NCBI GenBank assembly: GCA_036275295.1 | Contig: DASUEB010000025.1 | Location: 34,332 to 98,331, forward strand | Reading direction: 5' to 3' | From: Luteibaculaceae bacterium | GTDB taxonomy: Bacteria > Bacteroidota > Bacteroidia > Flavobacteriales_D > Luteibaculaceae | DNA length: 64,000 bases | The notes under the pieces: model-generated | Told to the model about the DNA's origin: nothing | Database searches by the model: none | Seen by the model: the letters and a program-made list of their open reading frames with translations, nothing else | Shown here: positions 3,009 to 47,190 of the stretch, piece by piece | Position numbering within the stretch: the first letter of the stretch is position 1 | How the letters are laid out: every line of letters begins with the position of its first letter | Translations under genes and position numbers: made by a program

Positions 3009-4574
3009 TTATTGCGTAACAATGAGGCGATAGGTGTGCTGTTCGACATGCAAGACATACACCCCTGCGGGCCATTGACTCACGTCGATGCCCAGTGAGG
3101 TAGTTGTGCCTCGCCACATGAGCTGTCCGTCGATACGCCTGATCGTTATAGGGGTGTGTGATGGGAGCCCGTCGATGTGCATTACCTCATTGGCGGGGTT
3201 GGGGTAAATTTGAAGCGCGGAGGCTGCTGCAGATGAAATTCCAACGGTGCTACCCAGGTCAACCGGCGGTGAACCGACATGCAACCTCATAAGATAACTG
3301 TTTTCATGCTGGATTCCAAAATTCTCAGCAGGTTCAAACAGGCTCAATCCGTCAGGCAGGATAAAGTTCTGGTTGGCTGTGTAGTTTTGAGGGGATACCC
3401 CAATGAAGGTATTGCCTGCATTAAAGAGTCGAACACCAATAAACACAGGATTAGTAGATATAGCCACGGTATCTGAAAACGACAGGGTATACCAACCCGT
3501 CGTGCTGCCGGGGGGAAATACCAGCGTTTGGCTCAGGGCGAGCTGTAGGTCGGGAACGACGTCGGCACGGTGAACTGCAACCTGAACGCTATCGCCCGAA
3601 ACCGGCTGTATAAAATAGACCGATACCGACCTCAGGGTGTCGGCCTTGGGAAAGACAAAAATGGAGCCCACCAAACCCGGATCGAGTAGGCTAACGCTGT
3701 CGGTTGCCACGCCGTCGGTGCGAGACAAGGTGCTATCGGTAACATCAAATCGGCAGAAGGCAGATTGATTGGTGGTATCGCCATCGGTGTTGTTCTGCAC
3801 GAACACATTGAGGTTGTATGAGCGCCCGGCCCGCGGTCTGAGGGGCACGGAAGGAGACCGCAAAACCGAAGCGCCACCCTCAAATGGCCGCGGCAATAGC
3901 TCGCTGCTGAAATAAGAACCGCTACTGGCATCGAACACCAAAACCGATTGATCAAACAATGTAGAGCCGAGGTTTTCTACCCTGGCCTCCAGCGGAATCT
4001 GGGCTGGAAGCATACGCTCAGGAAAGGCAAAATAATGGGTTAGCGGACAAGTGAAGGTCAAGGCCAGGTCGGGTTTGGGTTCAGCCAAGTTTAAGGTGAT
4101 AAAACCCTCGTCGTCGCGGGCTACATTGGGAAAGGAAACGAACTTGTCGCCTGAGACATAGAACCGAACGCGTTTGGGCTGGGTAACCGTATCGTCGATG
4201 GTCACATTGACGGTAAACAAGTGGAACTTTCGGTTTTCGATACCTCCCCGAGCTGCGAGGTCGTTGTTATCGCCCCAACTGATGATCTGTCCGCTAACGC
4301 CGTTGAGCATCTCGCCCGATTGTCCTTGTGTGGGCGTGGCAATGGGGTCAGAACTACTGCCGTTGGGTGTAACCCCAGGATCAAATTCGAGGGCAATGCT
4401 ATCGCCGAACTCGCCATCGAAATTCACCAAAAAAAGGGAGAACTGGAGATCCATGGTCTGATTAGCCACCAGGGGAGTTTGACACGACAAACTCACATCG
4501 ATATTTTTGTGCGACTGGGCAAGAGCCCCAATAGCCAGCAAACAGATAGATAAGGCGATGATAATTGCTTTCAT
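3009..4574 (-). CDS. secreted protein with T9SS type-A C-terminal sorting domain
   Basis: Signal peptide MKAIIIALSICLLAIGALA. C-terminus ...LQIYPNPANEVMHIDGL...DVSQWPAGVYVLHV... is typical of the Por secretion tail. ATG at 4574 preferred over TTG at 4580. Ends 4 nt before the polA start. Confidence 0.7.
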   Translation of the reverse strand: MKAIIIALSICLLAIGALAQSHKNIDVSLSCQTPLVANQTMDLQFSLFLVNFDGEFGDSIALEFDPGVTPNGSSSDPIATPTQGQSGEMLNGVSGQIISWGDNNDLAARGGIENRKFHLFTVNVTIDDTVTQPKRVRFYVSGDKFVSFPNVARDDEGFITLNLAEPKPDLALTFTCPLTHYFAFPERMLPAQIPLEARVENLGSTLFDQSVLVFDASSGSYFSSELLPRPFEGGASVLRSPSVPLRPRAGRSYNLNVFVQNNTDGDTTNQSAFCRFDVTDSTLSRTDGVATDSVSLLDPGLVGSIFVFPKADTLRSVSVYFIQPVSGDSVQVAVHRADVVPDLQLALSQTLVFPPGSTTGWYTLSFSDTVAISTNPVFIGVRLFNAGNTFIGVSPQNYTANQNFILPDGLSLFEPAENFGIQHENSYLMRLHVGSPPVDLGSTVGISSAAASALQIYPNPANEVMHIDGLPSHTPITIRRIDGQLMWRGTTTSLGIDVSQWPAGVYVLHVEQHTYRLIVTQ

Positions 4575-22384: not shown

Positions 22385-22441
22385 GGTAAGAGAGATAAAA
22401 ACAATTACTTGATAGCTTAATCTGGTAATTTTAGGTGGATG

Positions 22442-22902
22442 AGTTTCACTGGCGCGGCTGTTATAAGCCGCTTCGGCGAACAAGGCCCGCCATCGCTTCT
22501 CGACTGCGTCTCATAGCTTCGTTAAACCCAAATCTGTTATCTTACAATACATGTAACACCCCTTGCAGTGCGGACCTGTCCGCCGTAGCCCGTGGTTAGG
22601 AGTTTAAACGAGTTTTGATATGACAAGTTCACCTTCGCGGCTTGAAAAGCCGCTTCGGCGAGCAAGGCTCACCTTCGCTTCTCGACTGCGTCTCGAAGCT
22701 TCGGCGAGCAAGGCCCGGCTTCGCTTCTCGATTGCGTCTCGAAGCTTCGTTAAACCCAAATCTGTTATCTTACAATACATGTAATACCCCTTGCAGTGCG
22801 GACGTGTCCGCCGTAGCCCGTGGTTAGGAGTTTAAATGAGGCTTGGTATCATAAGCCCGCCTTCGCTTCTCGACTGCGTCTCGAAGCTTCGGCGGGCGAA
22901 GG
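22442..22902. repeat. about 2.3 tandem copies of a 185-230 bp structured non-coding element
   Basis: Copy 1 spans 22442-22612, copy 2 spans 22625-22840 (with an internal 46-bp duplication), and a partial copy spans 22851-22902. The motif TCGCTTCTCGAYTGCGTCTC..AGCTTCG starts at 22493, 22675, 22721 and 22863. Confidence 0.85.
22855..22897 (-). other. long imperfect hairpin 5 nt downstream of the tRNA-Ser 3' end
   Basis: GCCCGCC (22855-22861) pairs with GGCGGGC (22891-22897). There is an inner CTTC/GAAG stem and a 13-nt loop. Only a short T-run follows. Confidence 0.5.
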
Positions 22903-22990
22903 CGGAGAGAGGGGGATTCGAACCCCCGATACCCTTTTGAGGTATACACACTTTCCAGGCGTGCTCCTTCAACCACTCGGACACCTCTCC
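22903..22990 (-). tRNA. tRNA-Ser (anticodon GGA)
   Basis: Folded by hand: acceptor GGAGAGG/TCTCTCC, 3-bp D stem, anticodon loop CTGGAAA, long variable arm ATACC...GGTAT, T arm GGGGG-TTCGAAT-CCCCC, discriminator G. CCA is not encoded. Confidence 0.9.
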
Positions 22991-34331: not shown

Positions 34332-34556
34332 ATGAAACCAATCATTGCCCTATCCCTAATCCTGGCCGTGGCCAGTTCATGTGTGGTAAGAACTCCTCGC
34401 CCCGTGATTGTAAAACAGAAAAAATCAACGGTTGTCGTTCAACCCGCAAAAGACAATGGCCTTCACAAAGGTCACTACAAAAAGGGTGGCCCTAAAGGCA
34501 ACAACGGAAACGGAAACGGAAACGGAAACGGAAAAAATAAAGGCCCGAAAAAATAA
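34332..34556 (+). CDS. small basic lipoprotein with (Asn-Gly)5 repeat
   Basis: MKPIIALSLILAVASSC lipobox. Contains the perfect hexanucleotide repeat (AACGGA)x5. Confidence 0.5.
   Translation: MKPIIALSLILAVASSCVVRTPRPVIVKQKKSTVVVQPAKDNGLHKGHYKKGGPKGNNGNGNGNGNGKNKGPKK
34503..34532 (+). repeat. (AACGGA)x5 perfect in-frame hexanucleotide repeat
   Basis: Read directly from the sequence; encodes NGNGNGNGNG. Confidence 0.95.
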
Positions 34557-34559
34557 GAT

Positions 34560-41832: not shown

Positions 41833-42075
41833 ATTGGGATTAGGGGCTAAAAGTAACAGATAATCCTAAATTATGCCGTACGAATCCACCCCGAGGTAGA
41901 ACAAACTTCGCAACCATGCCAACGCGAATGAATTCAGAAGTTTTCGAGGACGGCGTGACAAAAGAAGTCATTCCTCAAAAAACGCGCATCGACCGAGGCA
42001 ATGGGAACAAATGACTGGCGCCGGCTTCTCCATTTGTCTAGTTCATTGGTAAACCCAACCCTAAAAAACCGTAAT

Positions 42076-42095: not shown

Positions 42096-42167
42096 GTGTT
42101 TCCGAACTCCTTCGCTAGCCCTAGCTCGGTAACTGAGACTTATGGAAATCTAACGAAGACATCATAT

Positions 42168-42303
42168 CACCTGTCACGTGTCACCTATCACCCATCACGT
42201 TTCACCCATCACGTTTCACCTATCACCTTTCACGTATCACGTATCACCTATCACGTGTCACTATTAACTATTAACTACTAACTATTAACTATTAACTACT
42301 ATC
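42168..42303 (+). repeat. 7-nt-phased tandem array: 13 x CAC(C/G)(T/C)NT, then 6 x TAYTAAC
   Basis: Units counted by hand with no register break: CACCTGT CACGTGT CACCTAT CACCCAT CACGTTT CACCCAT CACGTTT CACCTAT CACCTTT CACGTAT CACGTAT CACCTAT CACGTGT CAC TATTAAC TATTAAC TACTAAC TATTAAC TATTAAC TACTATC. Confidence 0.95.
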
Positions 42304-42326
42304 TTTAAGCCTTTGTTGAGGAAGAC

Positions 42327-44936
42327 ATGAGGTATATATTCGGCGTTCTGTTCGCCTGTTTCAGTTATTTACAAACCTTTGCTACCCATATCGAAGCGGG
42401 TGAAATTACCTATCGACAACTAAATGGCTTTACCTACGAGGCAACACTCGTGTTGTACGTGCTTCGCTCATCTAATGTGCCTGGAAACTTAGTCGACGGA
42501 TTCAACTGGGGCGATGGAACGGTTCAAACGCTGACCTTGTCGAGCGAAATTTTGCTTTCAGACAACCTTACCCAGAAGCGAACCTACATTGCCACGCACA
42601 CCTACCCCGGACCTTCGCGATACCTCTTGAGTCTCAATGAGCAGTTTCGCATCAACAGCATTCAAAATATCAACAACGGAAACGGAGTCAATGTCGCTTT
42701 TTACCTCGAGTCGGAGCTCATCATCAACCCATTCAATCCGGTGGGATCGGCAGTCAAAAACAACAGTCCCATACTGATCAATCCACCACTCGACAAGGCG
42801 TGTATATTTCAGCCATTTGAGCACAATCCTGCCGCTTACGACATCGATGGCGACAGCCTTTCCTATCAGTTGGTGCCTTGCCGGGGCCAAGGCGGTGTAC
42901 CCATCGTGTATGTAGATCCCGATCAAGTAAATCCCGGGGCGAACAATCAAATATCCATAGATCCGGTAACGGGAACGGTAAGCTGGACCAGCGCACAGCT
43001 TGCGGGGATATACAACATTGCCATTCTGATCACGGAGTGGCGCGGGGGGCAAAAAGTGGGATCGGTGCTTCGCGATATGCAAATTAAGGTGGTGAATTGC
43101 GCAAATAGGCCCCCATTTATTCGCGATTACGGCGACACCTGCGTGGCTGTCAACAGCAACATCAACAAGCTCTTCGAAGCCAATGATGGCAACAATTTCA
43201 ACGACAACATCAGCATCACCGCATCGGGAGAAACCTTTGAACGAGTTACCCTCCTCTCCTCTCTAAGTAATGCCGTTGTGGGTAACCCTGCCTCTGTGGT
43301 TTACAATTGGATCCCAACCTGCGCTGAGGCTCGCCGCCAGCCCTACGAGGTGGTACTCAAAGCAACCGATGATGGCAACCTACCACTGGCCGACTACGGC
43401 ACTTGGCGCATCAGTGTCGTATTGCCTCCGGTCACCGTTTATCCTCCCCAAGTACAAGGTGGGCGCGTTCAAATCAATTGGGACGCAAGTATCTGCAACA
43501 ATGTAGATGGATACCGGGTTTATCGATCCAGCTGCACGGCAGGGGCTCCCAACACCTCTTGCAGTTTCGCGGCTGATCCTCGCTTTCAGCTTGTAGGAAC
43601 AGTTCAGGGCAGCGGTCAGCTGAAATACATCGACACTACGTTGACCTTCTCTACCGAGGCCTGTTACATCGTCGTTCCGTTTCGCGACAATGGGGCAGAG
43701 GGAATTGCAAGTGTGCCGGTGTGCGTTGAATCGCCCTTTCAAGAAATATGCATGGTGTCGGTTGGAAGAACCGATGCTGTCAACGGTTTGGACACCATCA
43801 AATGGAACAAACCCATCGATATTGACACCTTGACACAATATACAGGTCCTTACCAATACCGCGTTTATCGGAGCCCAGGCATAACAAAAGCCACCAATTT
43901 GGTTTACCAAACACCCATTTCAATCGAATTTTACAAAACCGATACGGTATTCATCGACTCAGCACTGAATACCATTGATAGCGCTTATACCTATTTGGTT
44001 GAGCTTTATTCTGGAAACGCACTGGTAGGAAACAGCTCCAATGCGTCGTCCATTTTCCTGCGCGCCGCAGGAAGCGACCGAAAAATCAGTTTAACTTGGA
44101 CCTCCAAAGTGCCATGGACCGAGACGGGTGCTACCGTCCAACGGTTTGATACGGTCAGCCAAACATGGGTCAACTTGGTGAGCAACTTAAACGACACGAT
44201 GTATGCCGACACATCGGCTCAAAATGGATTTACCTACTGTTACCGCATCGTCAGGGGAACCCGCTTTTGTGATCCCGCCCGCACATCATCACTGATGAAT
44301 TTTTCACAAGAGGTTTGCGCCACTGCCGTTGATCAATCTGCCCCTCCCATTCCCGTTCTCAGCGCTACACCGTTTTGCAAAGACGGTTATGCCGAGCTTA
44401 CTTGGGCGGTTAGCTCGAGCATTGCCAACGCCGACCTGAAATCGTTTATCATCTTCTACAAACCCAGCTTAACCGGCGATTTCACGCCAATCGCCACCCT
44501 TGACAAAAACCAGAGGTTCTTTTTTTATACCAACAACAACAAATCGATTACCGGCTGTTATGCCATTGGTACAGAAGACACCTTGGGGAATACAAGCGGT
44601 CCGGGACCTCGTATTTGCTTGGAAGATTGTCCCGAATACCGTTTGCCCAACGTTTTTACGCCCAATGGAGATGGCGTAAACGACGTTTTTACGCCGTTCC
44701 CGTACAACGGAGTAACCGGCATCGAATTGCAGATTTTCAACCGATGGGGCAAGATGGTATTTCAAACCACCAATCCAGATATACTGTGGGATGGTCGTGT
44801 AGAAGGCGCCAATGCCTCTGATGGTGTATATTTTTACGTCGGGACCGTATTCTTTGGTTCCAGCGCGGGTCCAAAACCTGTCGAATTAAAAGGTACCGTC
44901 ACTCTCTTTACCTCCCAATCACAACGAAGCGAATAA
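42327..44936 (+). CDS. large cell-surface protein with T9SS type-B (gliding-motility-associated) C-terminal sorting domain
   Basis: Signal peptide. C-terminus ...LPNVFTPNGDGVNDVFTP...IFNRWGKMVFQT...WDGR...DGVYFYV is the type-B CTD signature. Confidence 0.85.
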   Translation: MRYIFGVLFACFSYLQTFATHIEAGEITYRQLNGFTYEATLVLYVLRSSNVPGNLVDGFNWGDGTVQTLTLSSEILLSDNLTQKRTYIATHTYPGPSRYLLSLNEQFRINSIQNINNGNGVNVAFYLESELIINPFNPVGSAVKNNSPILINPPLDKACIFQPFEHNPAAYDIDGDSLSYQLVPCRGQGGVPIVYVDPDQVNPGANNQISIDPVTGTVSWTSAQLAGIYNIAILITEWRGGQKVGSVLRDMQIKVVNCANRPPFIRDYGDTCVAVNSNINKLFEANDGNNFNDNISITASGETFERVTLLSSLSNAVVGNPASVVYNWIPTCAEARRQPYEVVLKATDDGNLPLADYGTWRISVVLPPVTVYPPQVQGGRVQINWDASICNNVDGYRVYRSSCTAGAPNTSCSFAADPRFQLVGTVQGSGQLKYIDTTLTFSTEACYIVVPFRDNGAEGIASVPVCVESPFQEICMVSVGRTDAVNGLDTIKWNKPIDIDTLTQYTGPYQYRVYRSPGITKATNLVYQTPISIEFYKTDTVFIDSALNTIDSAYTYLVELYSGNALVGNSSNASSIFLRAAGSDRKISLTWTSKVPWTETGATVQRFDTVSQTWVNLVSNLNDTMYADTSAQNGFTYCYRIVRGTRFCDPARTSSLMNFSQEVCATAVDQSAPPIPVLSATPFCKDGYAELTWAVSSSIANADLKSFIIFYKPSLTGDFTPIATLDKNQRFFFYTNNNKSITGCYAIGTEDTLGNTSGPGPRICLEDCPEYRLPNVFTPNGDGVNDVFTPFPYNGVTGIELQIFNRWGKMVFQTTNPDILWDGRVEGANASDGVYFYVGTVFFGSSAGPKPVELKGTVTLFTSQSQRSE

Positions 44937-45535
44937 TGTTTACTGGAATTATTGAATCTCTTGGGGTACTGGTTGACCTCCAGCATGAAGCGAGCAACCT
45001 ACACCTCACTTTCGAATCCAACATCAGCAACGAACTCAAAATTGACCAAAGCGTAGCGCACAATGGCGTTTGTCTCACCGTGGTGCAATGTGGCAACGGC
45101 AGACATACCGTAACAGCCATCGACGAAACCCTTCAAAAAACCAACTTAGGGCAACTCAAACTTGGGCATCGGGTGAATCTCGAGCGCTGTTTGGTTGCAG
45201 GCGGTCGACTGGACGGACATATCGTTCAGGGCCATGTAGACCAAATTGGCAAGTGTGTGAATGTGGTCGATCAAAACGGGTCGTGGCGTTATGATTTTGA
45301 ATACGATCCAACGCTTGGCAACATCACCGTTGAGAAAGGATCGATCTGTGTAAACGGCGTTTCGTTGACGGTTGTAAACTCAGTACCCAACGGATTTTCA
45401 GTAGCCATAATTCCCTACACATGGGAAAACACCGGCTTTGGACAGCTGCACGCAGGCGACTCGGTCAACCTAGAATTCGACATCGTAGGCAAATACATCA
45501 AACGACTGCATCAAGGGTATGGATGGAAGAGTTGA
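44936..45535 (+). CDS. ribE: riboflavin synthase
   Basis: MFTGIIESLG N-terminus and two lumazine-binding repeats (SVAHNGVCLTV / SICVNGVSLTV). The ATG overlaps the upstream TAA (TAATG). Confidence 0.9.
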   Translation: MFTGIIESLGVLVDLQHEASNLHLTFESNISNELKIDQSVAHNGVCLTVVQCGNGRHTVTAIDETLQKTNLGQLKLGHRVNLERCLVAGGRLDGHIVQGHVDQIGKCVNVVDQNGSWRYDFEYDPTLGNITVEKGSICVNGVSLTVVNSVPNGFSVAIIPYTWENTGFGQLHAGDSVNLEFDIVGKYIKRLHQGYGWKS

Positions 45536-45654
45536 GGGTTTGGGGTTTGGAGTTTAGGGTTGAGGGTTGAGAGTTGAGGGTTGAGGGTTGAGGGTTTAGG
45601 GTTGAGAGTTTAGGGTTTAGGGATTAAGCGTTACAAACACGTATCACGTTTCAC
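45529..45654 (+). repeat. 7-nt-phased G-rich array (14 x GRGTTKA, telomere-like), running in register into CAC heptamers
   Basis: GAGTTGA GGGTTTG GGGTTTG GAGTTTA GGGTTGA GGGTTGA GAGTTGA GGGTTGA GGGTTGA GGGTTTA GGGTTGA GAGTTTA GGGTTTA GGGATTA AGCGTTA CAAACAC GTATCAC GTTTCAC. The first unit contains the ribE stop codon. Confidence 0.95.
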
Positions 45655-45692
45655 CAGCCGTAGCCTTGACCTCGCGCCATAACCTGGACAAA

Positions 45693-45727
45693 CTCGGTTA
45701 CCGAAATCGACAAGCTTAGTCACCGAG
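45693..45727. other. hairpin in the unique spacer between heptamer arrays
   Basis: CTCGGTTAC / GTCACCGAG (8 of 9 bp), 17-nt loop, flanked by CCAGCC...GGCTGG. No U-run, so a weak terminator candidate. Confidence 0.35.
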
Positions 45728-45740
45728 CGAAGGCTGGTTT

Positions 45741-45803
45741 CACGCATCACATATCACGTTTCACGCATCACGTATCACGTATCACGTTTCACGCATCACC
45801 TCT
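45741..45803 (+). repeat. 7-nt-phased array, 9 x CAC(G/A/C)NNT
   Basis: CACGCAT CACATAT CACGTTT CACGCAT CACGTAT CACGTAT CACGTTT CACGCAT CACCTCT. The last unit touches the metF stop codon (45803-45805). Confidence 0.95.
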
Positions 45804-46756
45804 CAAAGCACCTCTTTTACAATTTGCCGCACCTCATCGGCCTTGCCCATGGTGTAAAAATGCAAACAGGGCACTCCGCGTTCAATGAGCTCCTTGGTTT
45901 GCTGAATTCCCCAGGCAATACCCACTTCTTTTACCTCGGCATCGGTGGTGCAGCGCATCAACTGATCGGCGAGCGCATCTGGGAAGTCGACGTGGAAGGT
46001 CTTAGGGATAAACTGAATGTGCTTTAACGTTGTGATGACCTTGATGCCGGGAATAATAGGCACATTAATCCCTGCTTTCCTGCATTGGTCGACATAGTCG
46101 AAATATTTCTGGTTGTCGTAAAACAGTTGTGTAACCACGTATTCTGCCCCACACTCGACTTTCTTGTGGAGATTGGTGAGGTCAGTTTTTAGGTTGAGGG
46201 CCTCAAAGTGTTTTTCCGGATATCCTGCGGCTCCAATACAGAAGTTGGTGGGCGCATTGACGTATTTCTCATCGTGCAAAAATTTTCCGCTGTTCATGTT
46301 GTTGATTTGCTCAATCAACTCCCATGCGTAGCGATGGCCACCTGGGCTGGGCACAAAGGTGCTTTCGGTCTTAACGGGATCGCCGCGCAGCGCCAGGATA
46401 TTGTCAATACCCAGGAATTGCAATTCGATCAACGCGTTTTCCGTCTCCTCCTTGCTAAATCCGCCGCAAATCAAATGCGGAACGGTATCGATATGGAATT
46501 TATTCTGAATAGCTGCACAAATGCTTACCGTTCCTGGTCTTTTTCGAATGGCATATTTTTGCAAATAGCCTCCAGGCAGCGTTTTATAGAGATACTCCTC
46601 GCGGTGATAAGTAACGTTGATAAACTTCGGATCGAACTCCAGCAAAGGTTCTATTCCGTCGAAAATGGTCTGAATACTCGCCCCTTTCAACGGTGGCAAC
46701 AGTTCAAACGAGAAAAGTGTTTTTTTAGCCGCTTTTAAATGGTCAATTACCTTCAA
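45803..46756 (-). CDS. metF: methylenetetrahydrofolate reductase
   Basis: (M)KVIDHLKAAKKTLFSFELLPPLKG N-terminus and MetF-like TIM-barrel sequence. TTG start codon. Confidence 0.9.
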   Translation of the reverse strand: MKVIDHLKAAKKTLFSFELLPPLKGASIQTIFDGIEPLLEFDPKFINVTYHREEYLYKTLPGGYLQKYAIRKRPGTVSICAAIQNKFHIDTVPHLICGGFSKEETENALIELQFLGIDNILALRGDPVKTESTFVPSPGGHRYAWELIEQINNMNSGKFLHDEKYVNAPTNFCIGAAGYPEKHFEALNLKTDLTNLHKKVECGAEYVVTQLFYDNQKYFDYVDQCRKAGINVPIIPGIKVITTLKHIQFIPKTFHVDFPDALADQLMRCTTDAEVKEVGIAWGIQQTKELIERGVPCLHFYTMGKADEVRQIVKEVL

Positions 46757-46789
46757 AACTTACAGGTTTTATCGTGATAAACAAGGCCA

Positions 46790-46797
46790 CAAAGGTA
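46790..46797 (-). promoter_or_regulatory. -7 promoter box TACCTTTG for metF
   Basis: Exact TAnnTTTG on the minus strand, 33 nt upstream of TTG 46756. Confidence 0.45.
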
Positions 46798-47162
46798 GTG
46801 GATTAGTCGGTAATATCGCCCCGTCGCCTCGTTCCTATCTCTCCAACTTTAAACCACCCAACAAGACCTTTAGTTATCCATCACTCAAAACCTCGGATTT
46901 GCTGATCTATCGGTTTGTCCAGCATCCAACGGCTCTGGGAAACTTTTTAGTCCGAGGGTTGTCTATATGCCTAAGGTGAGAAATCAGCAACGGCGATCCA
47001 AAATTGCAGAAATGGAACCCTTGACCAAGGGCCACCGCGTCACACTCTCATCCCCTTTTTGAGCTCCCTTCCACTCAAGTGGCTATGGCATAGTCAGGGT
47101 TATTGACCCCCGAGTGTTGACAATAGCAGGTCTTATATTGTCGTTAAGGCCTTTGGTAGGCG

Positions 47163-47170
47163 TAATTTTG
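47163..47170 (+). promoter_or_regulatory. -7 promoter box TAATTTTG for the 277-aa gene
   Basis: Exact TAnnTTTG, 20 nt upstream of ATG 47191. A TTG sits 22 nt further upstream (47138-47140). Confidence 0.5.
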
Positions 47171-47190
47171 ATCAATAAACTTGAGGTGTT

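Follow-up and report, generated by a model that had tools for sequence, protein, structure and literature searches.

The 64,000-nt stretch of contig DASUEB010000025.1 analysed here (the window; array coordinates are positions of that stretch) comes from a metagenome-assembled genome (MAG) of a Luteibaculaceae bacterium and carries, upstream of a gene for a type IX secretion system (T9SS) protein, a tandem array of 7-nt units that we call array 1. The gene order at this locus is pepA (minus strand), a 494-bp spacer, the T9SS-domain gene, ribE, a 267-bp spacer, and metF (minus strand). Array 1 lies in the first spacer, and we found further heptamer arrays 3.2 kb 3' of it, in the convergent ribE/metF spacer. 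The features of the locus are as follows.

42168-42258, plus strand: array 1a, 13 head-to-tail CACSYNT units with an invariant TCAC core and variable positions 4-6
42259-42303, plus strand: array 1b, six TAYTAAC units after a CAC junction, continuing the array 1a register
42327-44936, plus strand: T9SS-domain gene, first in the operon; 869 aa with a C-terminal CHU_C type IX secretion domain
44936-45535, plus strand: ribE, riboflavin synthase with lumazine-binding domains; its start overlaps the T9SS gene stop codon
45531-45628, plus strand: array 2, about 13-14 GTTKAGG-type units, beginning on the ribE stop codon
45636-45656, plus strand: left part of array 3, three TCAC-type units; the array is split in the window strain
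45657-45736, plus strand: 80-nt non-repeat segment inside the TCAC array, with imperfectly inverted ends (ACCAGCC...GGCTGGT)
45737-45806, plus strand: array 3, nine TCAC-type units (45737-45799) and a degenerate unit
45803-46756, minus strand: metF, methylenetetrahydrofolate reductase, convergent with ribE

A preliminary description of this DNA had named the gene behind array 1 a T9SS adhesin gene; the CHU_C domain supports the T9SS half of that name only.

Written out in rows of 7 nt, array 1 (42168-42303) keeps a single register through 13 CACSYNT units, the CAC junction, and six TAYTAAC units. In array 1a, CAC (positions 1-3) and T (position 7) are fixed in 13 of the 13 units; the alternatives are C and G at position 4, T and C at position 5, and G, A, and T at position 6. 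Sorted by type, the units comprise CACCTGT, CACGTGT (twice), CACCTAT (three times), CACCCAT (twice), CACGTTT (twice), CACCTTT, and CACGTAT (twice). The junction CAC at 42259 keeps this register, and the array 1b units follow in the order TATTAAC, TATTAAC, TACTAAC, TATTAAC, TATTAAC, TACTATC, a layout of (TATTAAC TATTAAC TACTAAC) x2 whose final unit is degenerate (TACTATC) and overlaps the predicted -7 box discussed below. The 3' end at 42303 is 23 nt 5' of the ATG at 42327, on the same strand.

Tandem Repeats Finder (TRF) recovers the same tracts with periods of 7, 14, and 21, adjacent units matching by ~75% in the CAC part and by 93% in the TAAC part. Across the 64-kb window, only periods 7 and 14 are enriched among self-match periods 3-15, and the pattern TCAC-N3 repeated five times gives 15 matches where 100 shuffles give 0.00 expected. 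At lags 7, 14, and 21, the self-match of array 1a amounts to 0.76, 0.84, and 0.79, respectively, that of array 1b reaches 0.92 at lag 21, and in arrays 1a, 1b, and 3 the values at lags 14 and 21 equal or exceed that at lag 7, which is the footprint of multi-unit block duplication. In addition, Logan contigs from the same sample match array 1 from both flanks, L127 as far as 42245 and L001 starting within the TAAC part. The row layout, TRF, the shuffles, and the independent contigs confirm that array 1 is real and far beyond chance, and both the 136-bp array in 7-nt register and its end 23 nt before the start codon hold as the preliminary description gave them.

An assembly artefact has to be considered, since the source is a MAG, the short-read contigs L127, L001, and L128 each stop within arrays, and one unit differs between assemblies: L001 (positions 1-40) reads CTAAC(TATTAAC)3TACTATC and the window (42276-42303) reads TACTAAC(TATTAAC)2TACTATC, the sole assembly difference in array 1. 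However, contig breaks within arrays are expected if the reads hold length variants, the independent contigs agree with the array from both sides, and homologous arrays with unique anchoring sequence to their left and right are found in two other samples. We therefore regard the chance of an artefact as negligible.

Neither folding nor coding capacity accounts for array 1, as had been stated earlier. Its RNA fold is no better than that of shuffles (minimum free energy -17.8 kcal/mol, shuffle mean -18.8, z +0.32), the DNA fold has a z of +0.50 against shuffles, and neither strand is structured. The sense strand is C-rich, G tracts are found on neither strand, and the sole open reading frame (ORF) overlapping the array is a mechanical 61-aa GTG ORF at 42096-42281.

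In the second spacer, array 2 supplies the ribE stop codon through the TGA of its first unit, GTTGAGG, and 13 GTTKAGG units are counted over 45531-45626. This array holds a canonical G-quadruplex motif on the sense strand, GGGTTGAGGGTTGAGGGTTTAGGG at 45578-45601, which as a sequence motif has at least four G3 tracts, short loops, and a distance of less than 50 nt from the stop codon. Some array 2 units (TTTAGGG) equal the plant telomere repeat, and its commonest unit, GTTGAGG, occurs once in the T9SS gene leader (42315-42321) in the array 1 register; both are probably coincidences. The degenerate unit of array 3 contains the metF stop codon (minus strand), and the TCAC arrays on the two sides of the operon share their orientation.

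According to a rough gene map, the window has 60 intergenic regions, two of which, both flanking the T9SS/ribE operon, contain heptamer arrays, and the other 58 contain none. All arrays of the window are intergenic, and they amount to three or four arrays of three unit types at two neighbouring loci in 64 kb. Arrays of one kind occupy both a promoter-bearing spacer and a spacer that has gene 3' ends only. RNA duplex tests between arrays 1, 2, and 3 gave complementarity no better than that of shuffles, and the idea of an HMW-like or 5'-3' pairing of the arrays was dropped for this reason.

Array units turn over between near-identical strains

Two further strains, L129 (SRR24079438) and L130 (SRR36033091), were found through an exact look-up of the MetF protein, which is 100% identical in both. 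Their metF DNA is ~99.3% identical to that of the window, with seven (L129) and six (L130) synonymous substitutions in 954 nt, and ~640 nt of ordinary DNA upstream of metF differ in L129 by six substitutions and one 10-bp indel. This indel, GTCAACTGTC, lies in a short palindromic stretch and is the only length difference between 46757-47190 and L129, the two being otherwise 99% identical.

The spacer between ribE and metF differs much more. Both strains are without the 80-nt segment, so that their TCAC array is continuous, and it counts 10 (L129) and 11 (L130) CAC units compared with 3 + 9 in the window. The order of the unit variants differs as well: the 4-nt spacers between CAC cores read GTAT, GTGT, ATAT, GTAT, GTTT, GCAT, GTAT, GCAT, GCAT in L129 and GTAT, GTTT, then the insert, then GCAT, ATAT, GTTT, GCAT, GTAT, GTAT, GTTT, GCAT in the window. 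Array 2 of L130 has units that are absent from the window, namely GTTTAAA and GGGATTA (twice). Array unit number and order thus change between near-identical strains while the ordinary flanks hardly change. Counting units in related strains was a check proposed in the preliminary description, and it gave whole-unit differences in the sister arrays (L129 and L130); in array 1, two assemblies of the source sample (the window and L001) differ by one unit. Exact-protein look-ups with pepA, the T9SS protein, and ribE returned the source sample only, and flank-anchored metagenome scans for array 1 returned no match and then an unrelated ribE.

The 80-nt segment that splits array 3 is flanked by GTTTCAC at either end; the window and L128 have it, and L129 and L130 do not. 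Either it was inserted with a 7-bp duplication, or it is what remained where other strains deleted DNA between direct repeats. A BLAST comparison with the window and all fetched loci found no second copy of it, nor of the 335 nt of unique sequence in the pepA spacer, and the fold of the segment is not significant.

This strain-variable segment, with its imperfectly inverted ends between GTTTCAC flanks, might suggest that small mobile elements left the arrays as scars or use them as landing pads. The TCAC arrays could also act as a recombination substrate, because they bracket a 3.5-kb T9SS/ribE segment as direct repeats and would promote its deletion, duplication, or exchange, and a role in rearrangement has been suggested for long Bacteroidetes arrays (PMC4679880). 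However, the segment is not a recent insertion, since relatives without arrays keep the order of pepA, the T9SS gene, and ribE; the 80-nt segment is a single copy as far as the window and the fetched loci go, and no transposase or integrase lies near the operon. Taken together, we consider recombination and mobile DNA very improbable as explanations of the arrays.

Promoter position and orthologous loci

Two predicted promoter elements lie in the pepA/T9SS gene spacer.

42300-42307, plus strand: predicted -7 box of the T9SS gene, Bacteroidota-type, TATCTTTA, 19 nt before the ATG
41848-41855, minus strand: predicted, divergent -7 box of pepA, TACTTTTA, ~310 nt from array 1

The motif TAnnTTT(G/A) sits 14-21 nt 5' of the ATG at ~10 genes of the window (15 nt in the case of pepA), which suggests that very short leaders are the norm in this organism. 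Examples among these gene starts are those at 3009 (minus), 5952 (plus), 7895 (minus), 26329 (minus), 40399 (minus), and 47191 (plus). The box of the T9SS gene and the leader downstream of it are conserved in orthologues, as TACTTTTAAGCCTTT in L002 and as TACTTTTAGACCTGTTTAC in L005 and L006, while the sequence 5' of the box is unrelated among them. Array 1 begins where this promoter conservation stops, its last, degenerate unit overlapping the box; the placing of a -7-like box at 42300-42307 within the last units, already given in the preliminary description, is thus reinforced by the orthologues.

A conserved -7 box at the 3' edge of array 1 would put the transcription start site (TSS) downstream, so that array 1 is probably untranscribed upstream DNA outside the mRNA. 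Farther upstream, the plus strand has just one more -7-like site, the weaker TAATTTAG at 42072. The -33 region of the predicted promoter falls within the periodic TAACTAY tract, and gain or loss of units would therefore leave the core-promoter spacing unchanged and alter only the distance to far-upstream DNA. Scans of both array-bearing spacers for sigma-70 promoters and intrinsic terminators gave no match.

This position raises the possibility that array 1 is a contingency locus, in which slippage would modulate the transcription of the T9SS surface protein or turn it on and off, as at hmw1A of H. influenzae or the ctxAB promoter of V. cholerae. The ctxAB heptads come in ~3-8 copies and have ToxT and H-NS as binders. 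In both systems the heptamers have a known effect, their number controlling HMW1A expression (PMC12721329) and ctxAB promoter activity (bioRxiv 10.1101/2021.05.14.444153). Array 1 abuts the -7 box of a gene for a secreted or surface protein, and whole-unit differences occur between assemblies in array 1 and between strains in the sister arrays. As at hmw1A, a heptamer tract with whole-unit length changes lies upstream of a surface-protein gene; as at ctxAB, where copy number is strain-variable and the heptads are TTTTGAT (bioRxiv 10.1101/2021.05.14.444153), the heptads stand directly upstream of the core promoter. However, the phase-variable (ATCTTTC)n tract of hmw1A and hmw2A (PMC12721329; PMC8262952) consists, at hmw1A, of perfect units that are transcribed in the 5' untranslated region and form a hairpin with a G-rich arm, which is cut by RNase III (PMC12721329). 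Array 1 is degenerate and free of hairpins (z +0.3), has no HMW-type hairpin with a G-rich arm, lies outside any real ORF with the predicted TSS downstream, and has sister arrays at gene 3' ends. Compared with the ctxAB heptads, it is far longer, mixed, and without a known binder.

Other observations also argue against a contingency locus. Like arrays follow the ribE and metF stop codons, where a promoter is not expected, and the CAC units are only ~75% alike, which lowers slippage rates and is far from the near-perfect tract of a contingency repeat. At the predicted promoter, the -33/-7 spacing would not be affected by unit number. Furthermore, the operon includes the housekeeping gene ribE, and the T9SS gene is a syntenic orthologue in many Bacteroidota, most of them without arrays. 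We consider a contingency locus unlikely. The slipped-strand contingency locus of the preliminary description divides accordingly: slippage is supported by whole-unit differences between strains that are 99.3% identical and in L001, while a change of promoter geometry is opposed by the arrays after the ribE and metF stops, the unchanged spacing, the ~75% likeness of the units, and the presence of ribE in the operon.

The nearest homologues of the T9SS protein outside the source are 44-49% identical, and the order of pepA, the T9SS gene, and ribE is conserved in the loci of relatives. The orthologous loci L002 and L005 contain no heptamer arrays in 9-15 kb. In L006, whose T9SS protein is 47% identical, short AATTAAG/CTTAATT heptamer arrays lie on both sides of ribE. 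The AATTAAG arrays of L006 are at 2757-2787, after the T9SS gene, and at 3430-3499, at the ribE end; opposite the latter, on the other side of a GC-rich palindrome, is an inverted CTTAATT-type array, with which it would form a long ribE-metF hairpin. Since the orthologous loci have either no arrays or unrelated heptamers, the arrays are not conserved cis elements of the operon, and judging from these sequences they come and go by lineage.

Outside this locus, an Rfam scan of the whole window at gathering thresholds found tRNA-Ser only (22901-22990, minus strand). This gene is adjoined at 22440-22900 by several ~46-nt hairpin-like units (GCTTCGGCGAGCAAGGCC..CCTTCGCTTCTCGACTGCGTCTCGAAGCTTCG), and a ~100-nt block near it is duplicated (22513-22610 and 22745-22840), resembling a cluster of repetitive extragenic palindromic (REP)-like repeats. 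The 8-mer CCTTCGCT, common to these repeats, the 80-nt segment, and the unique part of the pepA spacer, is marginally enriched only. A small lipoprotein-like ORF (~34333-34557) contains a perfect hexamer repeat, (AACGGA)5.3 at 34503-34534, which encodes an (Asn-Gly)n run and is an in-frame coding simple sequence repeat (SSR) whose length could vary.

Heptamer arrays in other genomes

A scan of GTDB genomes with the pattern TCAC-N3 repeated five times, which yields a sample selected for TCAC, found at least 120 loci in Planctomycetota, Acidobacteriota, Chloroflexota, Cyanobacteria, Bacteroidota, Desulfobacterota, Verrucomicrobiota, Actinomycetota, and others. Among the matches listed, which do not include the source genome, most are true period-7 arrays, often mixed with other heptamers, and a rough ORF call places 83 of 117 between genes. 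As in array 1, different heptamers join in register at, for instance, L014, L030, L033, and L070. From their sequences, the class of heptamers with a TCAC core is ubiquitous.

We also observed that TCACGTA, TCACGCA, and TCACGTT units form arrays at six of these TCAC-selected loci (L029, L058, L089, L065, L099, and L113), which belong to Chloroflexia, Desulfococcaceae, Anaerolineae, Thermoflexales, Sulfurimicrobium, and Verrucomicrobia. Among the listed matches L007-L126, sense-strand GTGA arrays abut the neighbour's stop codon in 19 of 22 convergent spacers, and metF likewise ends in a degenerate TCAC-type unit. This orientation rule was set aside as probably trivial, because GTGA-N3 gives TGA in all three frames and arrays in the opposite orientation are absorbed into mechanical ORFs.

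The recurrence of the core invites the explanation that the arrays are a periodic platform, a role that the preliminary description had also proposed for array 1. An oligomeric protein that binds DNA or RNA would recognize TCAC (or GTGA) at 7-nt intervals, and the arrays would be functional cis elements at gene ends. Candidates would be a cold-shock-domain or S1-like protein, a ring of the HutP/TRAP type, or a nucleoid protein. TCAC is invariant next to three adjacent free positions in arrays 1 and 3 and in L129 and L130, and the units TCACGTA, TCACGCA, and TCACGTT recur in loci of Chloroflexia, Desulfococcaceae, and Anaerolineae. Binders of the S1, Csp, or CsrA-like kind have been proposed for TAACTGA repeats (PMC4679880), and an unnamed binder in Nostoc (bioRxiv 10.1101/2022.06.06.494920). 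On the other hand, a binder has been identified for no such array, unit number and order drift freely between near-identical strains, three unrelated unit types stand side by side, and a cross-phylum sample chosen by TCAC cannot prove conservation. The RNA version is further opposed by the predicted TSS 3' of array 1, which would make an RNA platform unlikely for the T9SS gene and argues against a TRAP/HutP-like leader RNA; compared with the leader arrays of TRAP and HutP, array 1 has neither a terminator-like site nor a significant fold, and no alternative terminator/antiterminator structures were found. The platform has a low probability in our view, its DNA-binding version being kept alive by the strict invariance of TCAC. 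The wider proposal that TCAC/GTGA every 7 bp is a recognition site for an oligomeric binder across phyla, with unit turnover tuning expression of the T9SS protein between siblings, is improbable.

Among described heptamers, the STRR1-3 units (short tandemly repeated repetitive sequences) of heterocystous cyanobacteria are CCCCAGT, TTGGTCA, and CAACAGT. The units in the window, TCACSYN, TAACTAY, and GTTKAGG, are different ones from a different phylum, so the arrays are not STRR sequences in the strict sense. They do have three features of the broad heptanucleotide SSR class, namely a length beyond chance, a non-coding location, and a strain-polymorphic unit number. With STRR sequences and long SSRs, as summarised in PMC4679880, the window arrays share the 7-nt period, the intergenic location, the imperfect units, and the strain variability, and slippage has been proposed for that class. 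According to the summary of Mrazek's work in PMC4679880, heptanucleotides are the most abundant class of long SSRs, possibly via polymerase slippage.

The closest parallel is provided by MacGregor 2015 (PMC4679880), which describes repeats of the heptamer TAACTGA in Beggiatoaceae, cyanobacteria, and five Bacteroidetes. Long arrays with mixed heptamers per spacer occur in Gramella forsetii, Aequorivita sublithincola, and Elizabethkingia anophelis, the Bacteroidetes arrays are missing in close relatives, contigs often end in arrays, and Cyanothece strains differ by 'mostly indels in 7 nt increments' (PMC4679880). The arrays described there and those of the window are both made of tandem intergenic 7-nt units with several heptamer types per spacer, are absent from the same spacer of relatives, break contigs, and show indels in 7-nt steps between strains. 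The TAACTGA repeats and array 1 both lie in forward orientation and upstream from a start codon, a few tens of nt away, and the array 1b units TAACTAT and TAACTAC share TAACT with TAACTGA (5/7 identical), the exact TAACTGA being absent here. In contrast to the MacGregor arrays, the dominant unit here is TCAC-N3, array 1 is upstream of a predicted -7 box and not over the ribosome-binding region, and Luteibaculaceae are not among the five Bacteroidetes. The preliminary description had suggested a Bacteroidota counterpart of the cyanobacterial STRR repeats; a heptanucleotide tandem-repeat cluster of that class is indeed what lies here, although such a counterpart is not new, Bacteroidetes being already included in PMC4679880.

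Array 2 has a relative of its own in the G-quadruplex-forming heptamers GGGNATC and GGGGAYT of Xanthomonas and Nostoc (Rehm et al. 2015, PMC4692102). Both are G-rich on the sense strand, follow directly after a stop codon, and vary in length and sequence at a given locus between close relatives, and both have at least four G3 tracts 4 nt apart (45578-45601 in array 2, where the quadruplex is known as a motif only). The array 2 unit differs, being GGGTTGA or GGGTTTA.

Origin of the arrays

From the strain comparison and these parallels, we think it probable that array 1 is a slippage-driven composite heptanucleotide microsatellite of the STRR or long SSR kind and one of at least three such arrays in the window. 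Slippage in replication, or unequal recombination, would add or remove 7, 14, or 21 nt at a time. A point mutation arising in one unit would then be copied along the tract, and such copying would yield patches of related unit types, CACSYNT followed by TAACTAY. The register is kept across the CAC-to-TAAC junction because only whole units would be gained or lost, and a functional explanation of it is not needed. Any effect on the T9SS/ribE operon would be at most a modest by-product, acting through the -33/upstream contact region or the distance to upstream sites. Array 1 does not appear to be a dedicated on/off switch, and a regulatory role for it is possible but unsupported.

Several points weigh against a microsatellite that merely drifts. 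First, TCAC is invariant in ~45 units from two loci and three strains, which hints at a constraint or a mutational bias. The ten distinct unit types require at least nine changes, all of which fall at positions 4-6; by our own estimate, the chance of this is ~5e-4 with positions chosen beforehand and uniform mutation, and ~0.003-0.02 after a post-hoc correction. Possible reasons for the invariance are a TCAC/GTGA-reading binder, biased mutation, and how arrays come to be noticed. Second, the two array-bearing spacers among 60 flank one operon, an adjacency with a chance of a few percent, and the heptamers of L006 are also around ribE; either could mean a local role. Third, the weak TAATTTAG box at 42072 could place array 1 in a long leader. 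Finally, dispersal throughout the genome would be an extrapolation from 64 kb of it, and length variation of array 1 itself is seen as a single one-unit discrepancy between two assemblies.

If array 1 is such a slippage-driven microsatellite, the locus illustrates that phase variation should not be concluded from a repeat adjoining a surface-protein gene alone. Heptanucleotide arrays are the commonest long simple repeats in bacteria. The arrays break short-read assemblies and are useful as strain markers; beyond this their practical value is modest, and the invariant TCAC core is the one feature perhaps worth an experiment. For this little-studied family of Flavobacteriales, the locus offers an example with strain-level evidence, in which three unit families around one operon turn over by whole units in strains that are otherwise ~99% identical.

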